DNA from: Mycobacteriales bacterium | GTDB taxonomy: Bacteria > Actinomycetota > Actinomycetes > Mycobacteriales > SCTD01 | Assembly (NCBI GenBank): GCA_030697205.1 | Contig: JAUYQP010000037.1 | Coordinates: 5,228-69,227 of the forward strand | Direction: 5' to 3' | Length of the DNA stretch: 64,000 nucleotides | Shown here: piece after piece, positions 35,931-39,493 of the stretch | Layout of the letters: each line of letters begins with the position of its first letter | Numbering within the stretch: position 1 is the first letter of the stretch | Program-made: the position numbers and the translations under genes | The notes under the pieces: model-generated | Database searches by the model: none | What the model saw: only the letters and a program-made list of their open reading frames with translations | What the model was told of the DNA's origin: nothing

Positions 35931-36194
35931 TCAGGCCAGGGACAGGAAGAGCTTCTCCATCTCGGCGACGTCGAGGTCACCCTCAGGGCCGCCTTCGGCG
36001 AGGCACTGCTTGAGACCGCTGGCCACGATGCTGAACCCCGCCTTGTCGAGCGCCCGGGACACCGCGGCGAGCTGGGTCACGACGTCCTTGCAGTCGCGAC
36101 CGGCCTCGAGCATCCGGATGACACCGGCGATCTGCCCCTCCGCCCGGCGGAGCCTGTTGACCGCGGTCTTCACCGCGTCGTCGTCGAGCTGCAC
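35931..36194 (-). CDS. CsoR/RcnR (DUF156) family repressor with an x-C-x-C (CstR-like) fingerprint
   Basis: [32 protein letters not shown]...GLKQCL. The residue four positions before the second Cys is Gly, not His. GTG 36194 is preceded by GAGGAGGA. Confidence 0.85.
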
Positions 36195-36439
36195 GTGTCC
36201 TCCTCGGGAATGCGATCGACAGTAGTGCGGGCGCGCAGCCGATCCACGACCATCGAGACGGGACAGGCCCCGACTGCGACGTAGAGCAACTGGTTGCTGC
36301 CCACGAAGGCGGTCATCGCCAGCCACCAGGGGCTGACGAGCACCGCAAGCAGGCTCGTCAGCAGGGTGACGGTGCCCGCGAGCGCGAACAGGATGCGGGT
36401 GGTCGGCCAGGCGCCGACCGGCGGGGTGCAGGTCGTCAT
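36170..36439 (-). CDS. DUF2892 (YgaP-like transmembrane domain) protein
   Basis: Two TM helices and a terminal GACP motif. RBS GAGGAGAG lies in the 17-nt gap after the MMPL gene. Confidence 0.72.
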
Positions 36440-36456
36440 GGAGCTCTCCTCGGGGG

Positions 36457-38616
36457 TCAGTGGCTGAAGCGGACGGCGGGCAGGATCCGGCGCAACCAGC
36501 GCGGGCTCGCCCAGGCGGCCCTGCCGGCGAGCCGGAGCAGCACAGGCAGCAGCACGAGGCGGACCAGCGCCGCGTCGAGCAGCACGGCGACCCCGAGCAC
36601 GATGCCCATCTCCTTGGGCGGCAGCGGTCCCGACAGCGCGAAGGTGAAGAAGACGGCCACCATCACCCCGGCTGCGGCGAAGATGACGCGTCCGGAGTGG
36701 GCGAGTCCTCCGACCATCGCCTCACGGGGGTCGCCGGACCGCTCCCAGTGCTCCTTGGCACTGGCAAGCAGGAACACCGTGTAGTCCATGCCGATCGCGA
36801 AGATCATCGCGAAGAAGAACACCGGTGCCCACGCGTCGAGGAAGCCCTGCGACTCGAAGCCGAGCAGTCCGGCGCCGTAGCCCTCCTGGAAGACCAGCCG
36901 CGCCACGCCGAAGGCGGCCGCGGTGGCGAGCAGGTTGGTGACCACGCCGAGCAGCGCGACGAGCGGAGCCTGCAGCGCGACGAGCAGCAGCAGGAAGCCG
37001 AGGCCGAGCACGACCCCGACGACCAGCGGGGTCTTGTCCCGCAGGACGGACTCGAGGTCGTGGTTCTCCGCCGCGGCACCACCCAGCAGCGCACCCGGCG
37101 GCAGCGCCGCGCGAAGCCGGTCGATGGTCCGTCCCGTGGCCGGGTCGGACGGGTCGGTCGTCGGCACCGCCTGGAGCAGCACGCGGTCGCCGCCGCCGGG
37201 CATGGCGGGCATCACCCGCGCGATGCCCGGGTCCGTCGACAGCGTCGTTGCCACGCCCGCCTGCGCGCTGGACGCGACGACGACCTGGAGGGTGCCGGCC
37301 GCGCCCGGACCGAAGGCCGCGCCGACGAGGTCGTAGCCCACCCGCGAGGAGTCCTCCGCCGGCACCACCTTGATGCTCGGCATCCCGGTCTGCAGCCCCA
37401 GCACCGGCACCGCGAGCCCGACCAGCAGGGCGAGCGACGCGAGACCGAAAGCCACGGGACGCGCCCAGAGGCGCTCGGCCCAGCGGGCGAACCGCGGCGA
37501 GAAGCTGCTCGCCGTCGTGACCCACGGCAGGGCGCCGGCGTTGACGCGGCCGTCGAGGCGGGCGAGGACCGCGGGCAGCAGCGTCAAGGACGCCGCCAGC
37601 ACGAAGACGACCGCGAGCATGATGCCGAGCGCCATCGACTGGAAGGCCGGTGACGGGACGAGCATCACCGCCGACAGGCTGATGAGCACCGTGACGCCGG
37701 AGAAGAGCACCGCCTTGCCCGCTGTGTCGAGGGTCTCGGCCACGGCGTGCTCGACGCTGACAGCCCGTGCCCGTGCCGCGCGGAAGCGCACGACGATGAA
37801 CAGCGCGTAGTCGATCCCGAGAGCCAGCGCGAACATCATCGCGAAGTTCATCGCCCAGATGCTGATGTCACCGAGCTGGGTGCCGAGGTAGAGCGAGCCG
37901 GCCGCAGCCACGAGCCCGGTGATGGTCAGCAGCAGCGGGAGTCCGGCGGCCACGAGCGAGCCAAAGGCGAGGACGAGGATCGCCAGGGTGACGGGCCAGG
38001 AGTAGAGCTCGCTCTTGAGCATCGCCTGGAGGTTGGCCTCGTTGAAGTCGCTCCACAGCCCGGACGACCCCGTGAGCGCGACGGTGACGCCGTCGCCCCC
38101 GAGCTCGCGCAGCGGACCCTTGAGGTCGTCTGCGGCACGGACCAGCTCGTGGGTGCTCGGCGTCGCGGCACCCCCCTGCACGATCGCCGTGCGACCGTCC
38201 TCGGACACCGACAGGCCGGGCTGCGGCCCGATGACCGAGGAGATCCTCGGATCTGCCTCCAGCAGCCCGACGGCCTGCTCGACCGCGACGGCGCCCGGGC
38301 CCTCGAGCACCGGACCGTCGGACCGGTGAAGGACGACCATCAGGGCAGCGCTGCTCAGCCCCGCGAACTCGCGCTGGACGACGTCGCGCGTCTCGACCGA
38401 CTCCGAGCCAGAGGCCTCCCAGCCGGCTCCGGCGAGAGCGCTCTCGACGCGCGGCGCGAAGGCACCCAGCACCACGACGAGCAGTGCCCACACCACGAAC
38501 ACCGCGCGACGGCGCCGGGCGACGAGCAGGCCGAGGCGACCGAGCGGCCCGTGCTCGTGGGCTTCGCCGTAGCCGGGCTCGAGCACCGAGCGCTGGGACG
38601 TGGAAAGGGACGACAT
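36457..38616 (-). CDS. MMPL family RND-type transporter
   Basis: 12-TM architecture with two extracytoplasmic loops and typical MMPL blocks ([18 protein letters not shown]). I chose ATG 38616 after GAGGAG; the track start at 38673 is a TTG inside the operator. Confidence 0.9.
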
Positions 38617-38650
38617 GGAGCTCCTCGGGTCGTGGTGTGTGCCCATTGTG

Positions 38651-38689
38651 ATACCCCCGGGGGTACTTGTCAAATACCCCCTGGGGTAC
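38651..38689. promoter_or_regulatory. two CsoR-family operator boxes (ATACCCCCGGGGGTAC; ATACCCCCTGGGGTAC) inside back-to-back promoters
   Basis: Box A contains a perfect 14-bp palindrome, TACCCCCGGGGGTA. The overlapping -35 hexamers are TTGTCA(+) / TTGACA(-) at 38667-38673. The -10 elements are TAACCT (+, 38690-38695) and CACAAT (-, 38645-38650). Confidence 0.65.
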
Positions 38690-38702
38690 TAACCTCGCTG
38701 TC

Positions 38703-39101
38703 ATGGACATCGCCATCACCACCCGAACCTCCCTCGCCTTCGACGAGGCCGTCGAGCAGGTCCGTGAGGCTCTCGCCGAGCAGGGCTTCGGGGTAATCAC
38801 CGAGATCGACGTGCAGGCCACCATGAAGGCCAAGCTCGACGTCGACGTCGCGCCGTACCTCATCCTCGGTGCGTGCAACCCGCCCCTGGCGCACAGGGCT
38901 CTCGGCCTCGAGCCCGAGATCGGGCTGCTGCTCCCCTGCAACGTGACCGTGCGCGTCGACGGCGACACCACCGTCGTGCAGGCCATGGACCCGCAGCTGA
39001 TGGTCACCGTCGTGGACCGTCCGGGCCTGCAGGAGGTCGCCGACGAGGCCGGCGCCCGGCTGCGCCTGGCGCGCGACCGGCTCCCTCGGAGCGAGGCGTG
39101 A
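38703..39101 (+). CDS. DUF302 domain-containing protein
   Basis: FDEAVEQVREALAEQGFGVITEIDVQATMKAKL...YLILGACNP is the DUF302 signature. ATG 38703 lies 8 nt after the predicted -10 and has no SD sequence. Confidence 0.85.
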   Translation: MDIAITTRTSLAFDEAVEQVREALAEQGFGVITEIDVQATMKAKLDVDVAPYLILGACNPPLAHRALGLEPEIGLLLPCNVTVRVDGDTTVVQAMDPQLMVTVVDRPGLQEVADEAGARLRLARDRLPRSEA

Positions 39102-39493
39102 TCACGGCCAGCGTCCACCACGTCCGCGGCGACCGCTTCGCGATCGAGACCCGCGGCCACACCTTCTACATCGACCAGCCCGTCGATGCAGGGGGCGAGG
39201 ACACCGCACCGACACCGGTCGAGCTGCTCGTCGCGAGCCTGTCGTCCTGCGTGGCGCACTACGCCCACAGCTACCTGCGCCGCCACGGCCTGTCCGAGGA
39301 GGGCCTGGCCGTCCACGCGACGGCGGAGATGGCCGACCGTCCCGCCCGCGTTGGGTCGATCACCGTCGAGCTCACTCTCCCTCCGGGAGTCCCCGAGGAG
39401 CGTCGCGCCGCGCTGCTGGCCGTCGCGTCCCACTGCACCGTCCACAACACACTGCAGGCACCACCCGACGTGACGGTGCGCCTCGCACCCTGA
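39098..39493 (+). CDS. OsmC/Ohr family protein
   Basis: Both conserved Cys contexts are present (LSSCVAHY, ASHCTVHNTL). GTGA overlap with the DUF302 gene. Confidence 0.87.
   Translation: MITASVHHVRGDRFAIETRGHTFYIDQPVDAGGEDTAPTPVELLVASLSSCVAHYAHSYLRRHGLSEEGLAVHATAEMADRPARVGSITVELTLPPGVPEERRAALLAVASHCTVHNTLQAPPDVTVRLAP

Follow-up and report, generated by a model that had tools for sequence, protein, structure and literature searches.

We analysed a five-gene locus at positions 35931–39493 of a 64,000-nucleotide stretch of Mycobacteriales DNA, hereafter called the window. Its CsoR-family regulator is probably a sulfane-sulfur repressor of the CstR/ScCsoR type, which would govern two divergent units, MMPL-DUF2892-regulator and DUF302-OsmC, as a trimmed detoxification regulon. 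This is a new regulon variant of a known sensor class: the novelty lies in the MMPL-DUF2892-DUF302 extension, joined here by OsmC, and this extension is common in sequence databases under generic annotation. The original prediction, made from the letters alone, had proposed an undescribed system. That part stood which concerns the roles of MMPL-DUF2892, DUF302 and OsmC in such a regulon, none of them described in the searched literature, whereas the sensor class had already been described, in cluster 3 of a sequence similarity network (SSN) together with ScCsoR, and the gene set proved to be common.

On the minus strand, an MMPL-family RND transporter (36457..38616, 719 aa from ATG 38616) is followed by a DUF2892 or YgaP-like two-helix membrane protein (36170..36439, 89 aa, ATG 36439) and, as the last gene of the operon, by the CsoR-family (DUF156) regulator (35931..36194, 87 aa, GTG start). 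On the plus strand, a DUF302 protein (38703..39101, 132 aa) precedes an OsmC-family two-cysteine protein (39098..39493, 131 aa). A 17-nt gap with GAGGAG separates the MMPL stop (36457) from the DUF2892 ATG (36439), the end of DUF2892 (stop 36170) overlaps the regulator GTG (36194) by 25 nt, and a GTGA overlap at 39098–39101 couples the OsmC start to the DUF302 stop. These coordinates, gaps and overlaps, claimed beforehand, were all confirmed in the sequence. DUF302 and OsmC have the same boundaries on a metagenome contig of 90% identity (L081) whose genes were called independently, and a contig from the Logan assembly of run SRR13727523 (L082) showed 100% identity with the window across 7,059 nt. 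The MMPL start is most likely ATG 38616, with a GAGGAG ribosome-binding site at 38621–38626. The first start of the MMPL open reading frame (ORF), at 38673, sits within the promoter/operator region and was set aside in favour of this ATG, which is preceded by the ribosome-binding site.

The regulator scored 84.9 bits against PF02583 (cutoff 22.8), with residues 9–83 covered. It carries Cys35 in GRDCKDV and Cys64 in GLKQC (Cys-x28-Cys), and four residues before Cys64, at the Y position of the W-X-Y-Z ligand fingerprint of the family, stands Gly60. In 114 relatives, gathered from loci of genomes and metagenomes, both cysteines are invariant (114/114) and Gly occupies Y in 113/114, the sole His at this position belonging to a Cu-CsoR paralogue in locus L004. 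The x-C-x-C fingerprint read earlier, a Cys pair with Gly at Y, was thus borne out by sequence and alignment. His occupies Y in all Cu/Ni references and in the Cu-CsoR of the window itself, and the regulator has no His at Y or Z, unlike the Ni/Co sensors RcnR and InrS, whose His ligands stand at W, Y and, in RcnR, also Z. The formaldehyde sensor FrmR requires an N-terminal Pro2 paired with Cys35; at residue 2 the regulator has Gln, and its relatives have Gln, Glu, Lys or Arg. Among NCBIfam models RicR matched best (47.5 bits, cutoff 175); FrmR scored 30.6 (cutoff 133) and RcnR 20 (cutoff 138), and no specific family model of this collection was reached by the regulator, DUF2892, DUF302 or MMPL. 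Against solved family members the regulator scored 23–46 bits, and the top match, 6AHX, is an x-C-H-C protein. Solved structures hence fail to sort it, and context and a tree are needed.

We built a neighbour-joining (NJ) tree on a 65-residue core with 32 sampled relatives, 7 references (CsoR of S. lividans, Geobacillus and M. tuberculosis, InrS, 6AHX, S. pneumoniae CstR and the window Cu-CsoR) and 100 bootstraps. The actinobacterial x-C-G-C group was monophyletic in 93/100 bootstraps and never nested in the copper sensors. Accordingly, with no ligand at Y in the alignment, the claim that the regulator lies outside the Cu-sensing CsoR/RicR proteins was upheld. Gene context, operator and what has been published on the cluster lead us to place the regulator in the actinomycete x-C-x-C clade that includes ScCsoR. 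The exact protein was found on 4 metagenome contigs.

Two 16-bp operators lie between the divergent units. Operator 1 (ATACCCCCGGGGGTAC, 38651..38666), which matches the ScCsoR pattern ATACCn6GGTAT, fills the spacer of the MMPL promoter; operator 2 (ATACCCCCTGGGGTAC, 38674..38689), whose start is 23 bp from that of operator 1, occupies the spacer of the putative DUF302 promoter. The whole 64-kb window was scanned for ATACC-N6-GGTAY with at most one mismatch, and the pattern occurred solely at these two places, with 4 strand-matches against 0.65 expected, a count reached by 0/100 shuffles. The promoter of the MMPL operon (38645..38673, minus strand) comprises TTGACA (38673–38668), a 17-nt spacer and CACAAT (38650–38645). 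It was the single sigma-70-like site called in 35700–39700, with 10/12 matches and 0.1 expected from shuffles. The putative DUF302-OsmC promoter (38667..38695, plus strand), read by eye, would comprise TTGTCA (38667–38672), a 17-nt spacer consisting of operator 2 plus one base, and TAACCT (38690–38695). The DUF302-OsmC transcript is probably leaderless, since the ATG lies 7 nt downstream of this -10. Both -35 hexamers overlap, so that about 50 bp carry both promoters and both operators. The original prediction had assigned both units to one operator region, and this is what we found: two operators within the back-to-back promoters. No copper gene stands under operators of this regulator.

The same type of site is known from S. 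coelicolor. There ScCsoR (SCO0620) represses PDO-rhodanese (PDO, persulfide dioxygenase), TauE and rhodanese genes, and polysulfide releases it from ATACCn6GGTAT, for which both Cys37 and Cys66 are needed (Lu et al. 2020, PMC7533328). ScCsoR and M. tuberculosis Rv1766 fall in SSN cluster 3, with 3,175 actinomycete x-C-x-C candidate persulfide sensors (Fakhoury et al. 2021, PMC8643695). The window regulator resembles ScCsoR in its Cys pair 29 residues apart (Cys37/Cys66 in ScCsoR) without a His ligand, in the paired 16-bp ATACC-N6-GGTAT-type operators at promoters and in its predicted autoregulation. Unlike those of ScCsoR, the window operators control MMPL, DUF2892, DUF302 and OsmC and not PDO-rhodanese, TauE and rhodanese. 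Similarly, CstR of S. aureus, Enterococcus and Streptococcus (PDB 7MQ1) has the x-C-x-C fingerprint, the same Cys spacing (Cys30/Cys59 in SpCstR), a similar GxRDCxDxVTQL helix and a repressor logic with paired operators. However, core identity to CstR is 32%, the two belong to separate clades which are not sisters in the NJ tree, and the regulator has Gly where CstR has an Asn ‘wedge’ at Y. The window cargo also differs from the S. aureus cst operon in having no CstA, CstB or SQR; that 35931–39493 holds no canonical cst gene (sulfurtransferase, persulfide dioxygenase or SQR) had been noticed at the outset and proved correct.

We then examined the neighbours of the regulator in 80 genome loci with regulators 62–92% identical to that of the window. 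A rhodanese or PDO-rhodanese was present in 32/80 loci and a TauE sulfite exporter in 27/80. By Pfam, the rhodanese group takes three forms: a fusion of an MBL-fold domain and a rhodanese, which is the type III persulfide dioxygenase form, a fusion of a rhodanese and a YgaP-like transmembrane domain (DUF2892), and a single rhodanese. DUF2892 is thus the membrane domain of rhodanese-DUF2892 fusions that are standard members of regulator clusters. Thioredoxin and a TPMT-like methyltransferase also recur beside the relatives. In Streptomyces and Kitasatospora, relatives with 63–71% identity sit in the PDO-rhodanese / TauE / rhodanese arrangement, and Mycolicibacterium relatives, too, come with a ScCsoR-like gene set. 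An operator is found upstream of the regulator gene itself in most related loci, and further copies stand before genes for PDO-rhodanese, rhodanese, MMPL, DUF302, thioredoxin and OsmC. In a plasmid collection, the regulator was found in 129 records and MMPL in 44. As a side observation, SAM-dependent methyltransferases with weak TPMT/TehB similarity stand beside the regulator (L003, L008, L010, L012, L059) or directly after MMPL-DUF2892 (L092, L096, L105, L108, L113), which may point to methylation of thiols or sulfide as an additional arm of the response.

The exporter was followed separately, in 80 metagenome loci (62–74% G+C) with an MMPL 63–79% identical to that of the window. Neighbours were counted from clusters of GC3-based gene calls, cross-checked by tblastn, and the counts are lower bounds; the caller miscalls a few genes, such as 34528–34893 (minus strand), which should be a DUF2231 gene on the plus strand. 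A CsoR-type regulator occurs in at least 20 of the 80 loci, DUF302 in at least 19, PDO/rhodanese in 18, TauE in 17, thioredoxin in 11, type III SQR and CMD/AhpD-like genes in 6 each and OsmC in 5. An ArsR-family regulator is present in 36/80, usually directly before DUF2892-MMPL, and one or both regulator types in 54/80. The ArsR/SmtB-family proteins of these loci (L085–L164; examples L087 1817–2158 and L153 529–870) carry a conserved C-x3-C motif, LCEQVCGG, and remained below the cutoffs of the BigR and CmtR models. By tblastn, 41/80 loci have a DUF2892-like ORF that adjoins MMPL in the same orientation, upstream in 29 and downstream, as in the window, in 12. When upstream, it is typically 9 nt away from MMPL, which suggests translational coupling. 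In L097 and L108, MMPL and DUF2892 seemed to be fused; this was rejected as an artefact of alternative-frame ORF extension in high-GC DNA, the two frames being different.

Operators accompany the exporter in these relatives as well. The two-operator layout precedes MMPL in L081, L085, L086, L091, L094, L098, L100, L112, L121, L125, L127 and L136, with start-to-start spacings of 22–23 or 32–35 bp in the loci other than the window. An operator directly upstream of MMPL was also found in L003, L016, L045, L081, L085, L086 and Rhodococcus jostii RHA1, and one before DUF302 in L025, L059 and L075. The trio SQR-DsrC-DsrE2 directly adjoins MMPL-DUF2892 in L097, L124 and L143. OsmC is near the regulator or MMPL in L016, L017, L058, L063, L097, L104, L109, L124 and L160, and in other loci CMD/AhpD-like, thioredoxin or glutaredoxin-like genes replace it; a thiol-redox partner is a constant theme of the MMPL loci.

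Annotated plasmids of cultured strains carry related clusters. On pRHL3 of R. jostii RHA1, a row of rhodanese, MMPL, CsoR-family regulator, DUF2892, DUF302, TauE and an MBL-fold gene has MBL-trxA, CMD, ArsR, DsrE and TusA upstream, and the operator occurs at six intergenic places in the island. This island (RHA1_RS43855–RS43925) has in common with the window the MMPL subfamily (63% identity), the regulator (66%), DUF2892, DUF302 and the operator upstream of each unit. It adds rhodanese, three MBL-fold (PDO-like) genes, TauE, trxA, CMD, ArsR, DsrE and TusA, has no OsmC and differs in gene order. Its annotation is generic, and no study of it was found in the searched literature. On a plasmid of Tsukamurella tyrosinosolvens, the regulator and DUF302 are divergent from MMPL, DUF2892, DsbA and an FAD oxidoreductase, and an R. 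qingshengii plasmid carries MBL, MMPL, regulator, DUF2892, DUF302 and TauE. The window is a trimmed version of this widespread actinobacterial island, without PDO, rhodanese and TauE. The gene combination, which the original prediction did not know as a described system, proved to be neither rare nor separate from canonical cst genes: in the co-occurrence search, MMPL, DUF2892 and DUF302 were found with rhodanese, PDO and TauE, in clusters that in other actinobacteria stand under the same operator.

Concerning the cargo, MMPL matched PF03176 with 220 bits in 2 stretches, and its nearest solved relatives are MmpL3 (152 bits), then MmpL4/5, which move lipids or siderophores. Asp-Tyr pairs form the proton relay in the transmembrane core of MmpL3, and the GIDY and GMDY motifs kept in the MMPL translation correspond to them. 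The 719-aa protein has zero cysteines, which is uncommon in so large a protein and might be an adjustment to substrates that react with thiols. The adjoining 89-aa protein scored 17.1 bits against PF11127, below the cutoff of 25.3 (E = 0.006). The same model is matched by 23/28 aligned homologues adjoining MMPL (best E = 4.6e-11), and the corresponding Rhodococcus and Tsukamurella genes are annotated as DUF2892 by NCBI. BLAST of the 89-aa protein against rhodanese-DUF2892 fusions gave nothing significant; alignment and Pfam scan settled the family. Its Cys59 is invariant, in a G-x-C-P motif. In Azospira, H2S raised the expression of a stand-alone DUF2892 gene about 10-fold (PMC5358917). Contig L081 is without two segments of the window, at 34473–35932 and 36232–36449: the first holds DUF2231 and a secreted 313-aa protein that bears long Ser/Thr/Gly repeats, and the second most of the DUF2892 gene, of which the 3′ tail alone is left.

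DUF302 scored 86.6 bits against PF03625 and 103.6 bits against T. thermophilus TT1751 (PDB 1J3M). Its Cys58 (GACNP) and Cys79 (LLPCN) are invariant in 29/29 sequences and kept in two solved homologues. DUF302 also recurs in sox clusters of Acidithiobacillia, in the sqr operon of Synechocystis and in a CsoR-PDO plasmid module of Arthrobacter (PMC5037610, PMC5061849, PMC6305408). OsmC matched PF02566 with 68.3 bits and has a predicted peroxidase fold, with Cys51 and Cys113, of the catalytic type, conserved in 7/7.

Two known pairs invite comparison. In E. coli, ygaV-ygaP encodes an ArsR-type sulfide-responsive regulator and a rhodanese-DUF2892 membrane protein. As there, DUF2892 is found downstream of a small sulfur-linked regulator, and the ArsR-DUF2892-MMPL order of many relatives recalls this arrangement; unlike there, the DUF2892 protein of the window has no rhodanese domain, is paired with MMPL and is under a CsoR-family regulator, and the ArsR proteins of the MMPL loci carry C-x3-C and lie below the BigR cutoff. 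In mycobacterial MmpS-MmpL pairs, too, a small membrane protein adjoins MMPL and is probably co-translated with it, but DUF2892 is unrelated to MmpS.

While the operators, the gene structure, the family assignments and the conserved context were observed directly, we infer the inducer, the details of promoters and transcripts and the functions of the cargo as follows. The reduced repressor would bind the two 16-bp ATACC-N6-GGTAC operators in the -35/-10 spacers and so block both back-to-back promoters, that of the DUF302-OsmC operon and that of the MMPL-DUF2892-regulator operon, the latter being autoregulated because the regulator is its last gene. Reactive sulfur would persulfidate Cys35 and Cys64 or join them across protomers through di- to tetrasulfide links, modifications known from ScCsoR and CstR, and the modified repressor would leave the DNA, allowing expression of both units. 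The output would be a proton-driven MMPL exporter with DUF2892 as its membrane partner, DUF302 and a thiol protein of peroxidase fold, OsmC, while enzymes that make or burn sulfane sulfur may be encoded elsewhere, for example in the SQR cluster at 46.7–51.1 kb. On the simplest reading, the regulon exports or handles reactive sulfur species at the membrane and repairs thiol damage. A response to reactive sulfur, in line with the thiol or persulfide stress foreseen in the original prediction, is the best fit, given what stands beside the orthologues, the operator they have in common and the work published on ScCsoR.

Several points weigh against this assignment. The two units encode no sulfurtransferase, PDO or SQR, and the link to sulfur would come through homology of context; likewise, orthology with ScCsoR is taken from gene context, the shared operator and the published cluster description. 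Firmicute CstR has an Asn ‘wedge’ at Y; with Gly there, the regulator may be tuned to a different reactivity. The -10 of the plus-strand promoter is weak (3/6 matches) and was not called by the consensus scan. DUF2892, largely deleted in the 90%-identical relative L081, is dispensable there and hence not indispensable to the system, as the 3′ tail is all that this contig keeps. Finally, OsmC here and the CMD, thioredoxin and glutaredoxin neighbours elsewhere would suit a general response to thiol oxidants equally well.

This last point leads to an alternative that we consider unlikely: the regulator might be a general sensor of thiol oxidants and electrophiles (peroxide, hypochlorite, quinones, tellurite, selenite), and the regulon an efflux-plus-peroxidase stress system. 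CstR-type dithiols react in vitro also with non-sulfur oxidants such as tetrathionate. Reaction with tetrathionate has been reported for SpCstR (PMC8643695). A window cargo without a sulfur enzyme but with a peroxidase-fold OsmC would agree with such a sensor, as would the thioredoxin, glutaredoxin-like and CMD/AhpD-like genes that recur beside MMPL and the TPMT/TehB-like methyltransferases beside the regulator. On the other hand, PDO-rhodanese, rhodanese and TauE genes are targets of clade members that use this operator in dozens of genomes. The sole characterised member of the clade answers polysulfide in vitro, and in vivo it governs the sulfane sulfur of the cell (PMC7533328).

If a sulfane-sulfur repressor is accepted, the question becomes what the exporter does under it. 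MMPL-DUF2892 could be a dedicated efflux system for sulfane sulfur, in the form of elemental sulfur or polysulfide, organic polysulfides or a persulfidated low-molecular-weight thiol, a proposal that we regard as tentative and rather doubtful. The membrane Cys of DUF2892 would take sulfur from cytoplasmic carriers, from rhodanese where present and from DUF302 via its two Cys, and pass it to the cysteine-free, proton-driven RND pump. Conversely, it is quite improbable that MMPL-DUF2892 is a lipid or drug exporter riding along in mobile sulfur islands, with a shared operator of little physiological meaning. Every solved relative (MmpL3, MmpL4, MmpL5) does move lipids or siderophores, many carriers are plasmids, and no paper linking MMPL transporters to sulfur or to persulfide regulons was found in the open-access literature searched, a scope outside which the neighbourhood figures of Fakhoury et al. 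lie. However, an operator immediately precedes MMPL in the window and in several lineages, and where the CsoR-type regulator is missing an ArsR-type one directly precedes DUF2892-MMPL. Moreover, the rhodanese fusions of these clusters have DUF2892 as their membrane domain, and the typical 9-nt distance of DUF2892 to MMPL points to coupled translation. As for a sensor of Cu(I) or another metal with two Cys ligands, or an FrmR-like formaldehyde sensor, CsoR-family membership with RicR as best NCBIfam match and the resemblance of the operator to Cu-CsoR and RicR sites (PMC7533328) would allow it, but no His or other ligand at Y, no Pro2, no metal transporter under the regulator's operator and a full Cu-CsoR/CopZ/CopA set in the window with its own, differently spaced operators make it extremely improbable.

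The disposal of excess sulfane sulfur by bacteria is mostly explained by PDO oxidation with sulfite export or by thiol reduction. Should MMPL-DUF2892 be an efflux system of the kind outlined above, it would constitute a third route beside these two and provide first functions for DUF2892 and DUF302. A regulator of the persulfide-sensing clade here controls an exporter of the proton-driven RND/MMPL type and three small proteins with strictly conserved cysteines, which together may offer a way out of the cell for reactive sulfur. In Rhodococcus, Tsukamurella, Kitasatospora and many uncultured actinobacteria, sulfur islands repeatedly carry this exporter family and its partner families, under a CsoR-type or an ArsR-type regulator. 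Testable candidate functions thereby arise for DUF302 and DUF2892, both widespread and recurring in sulfur clusters without an assigned role, and cultured, genetically tractable carriers exist, R. jostii RHA1 included; T. tyrosinosolvens NCTC13231 and Kitasatospora nipponensis JCM 13004 are further cultured carriers.

Other loci of the window were also read. A complete copper module lies at 24892–28571 on the plus strand, with a Cu-type CsoR (24946–25239, 116 bits to S. lividans CsoR), CopZ (25268–25483), a 285-aa secreted protein (25483–26340) and CopA (26337–28571). The second csoR at 24946, with its Cu-type YCIDV...EHMAHC, had been named in the original prediction and was found as described, followed by CopZ and CopA. 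Its operators, at 24892–24935, are the GC-rich palindromes GATACCCCCCCTGGGTGTC and GACACACCCCCGGGGGGTATC, with a TTGACA box between them. Each has one base more in its core than the 38.6-kb operators and is not matched by the ScCsoR pattern, a difference in core length that may keep the two paralogues apart.

A second sulfur cluster of five genes occupies 46739–51064 on the minus strand, 10 kb away and with a different regulator. It encodes a type III SQR, two proteins resembling DsrC/TusE and DsrE2, a SulP-STAS permease and an ArsR that has one Cys. Against an NCBIfam model named ‘selenoprotein subtype’ the SQR scored 608 bits (cutoff 525), and the whole-window scan gave no ScCsoR-type operator before this cluster. 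Nearby, a rhodanese-like ORF (45710–46163, minus strand) has an FCNGPQC active-site loop, its C-terminal part in another frame and a weak codon bias, and is apparently a frameshifted or decaying gene. Adjoining the SQR cluster, 51389–59847 on the plus strand carries what look like, from size, order and N-terminal sequences, a nitrate/nitrite transporter and then a narGHJI-type respiratory nitrate reductase operon.

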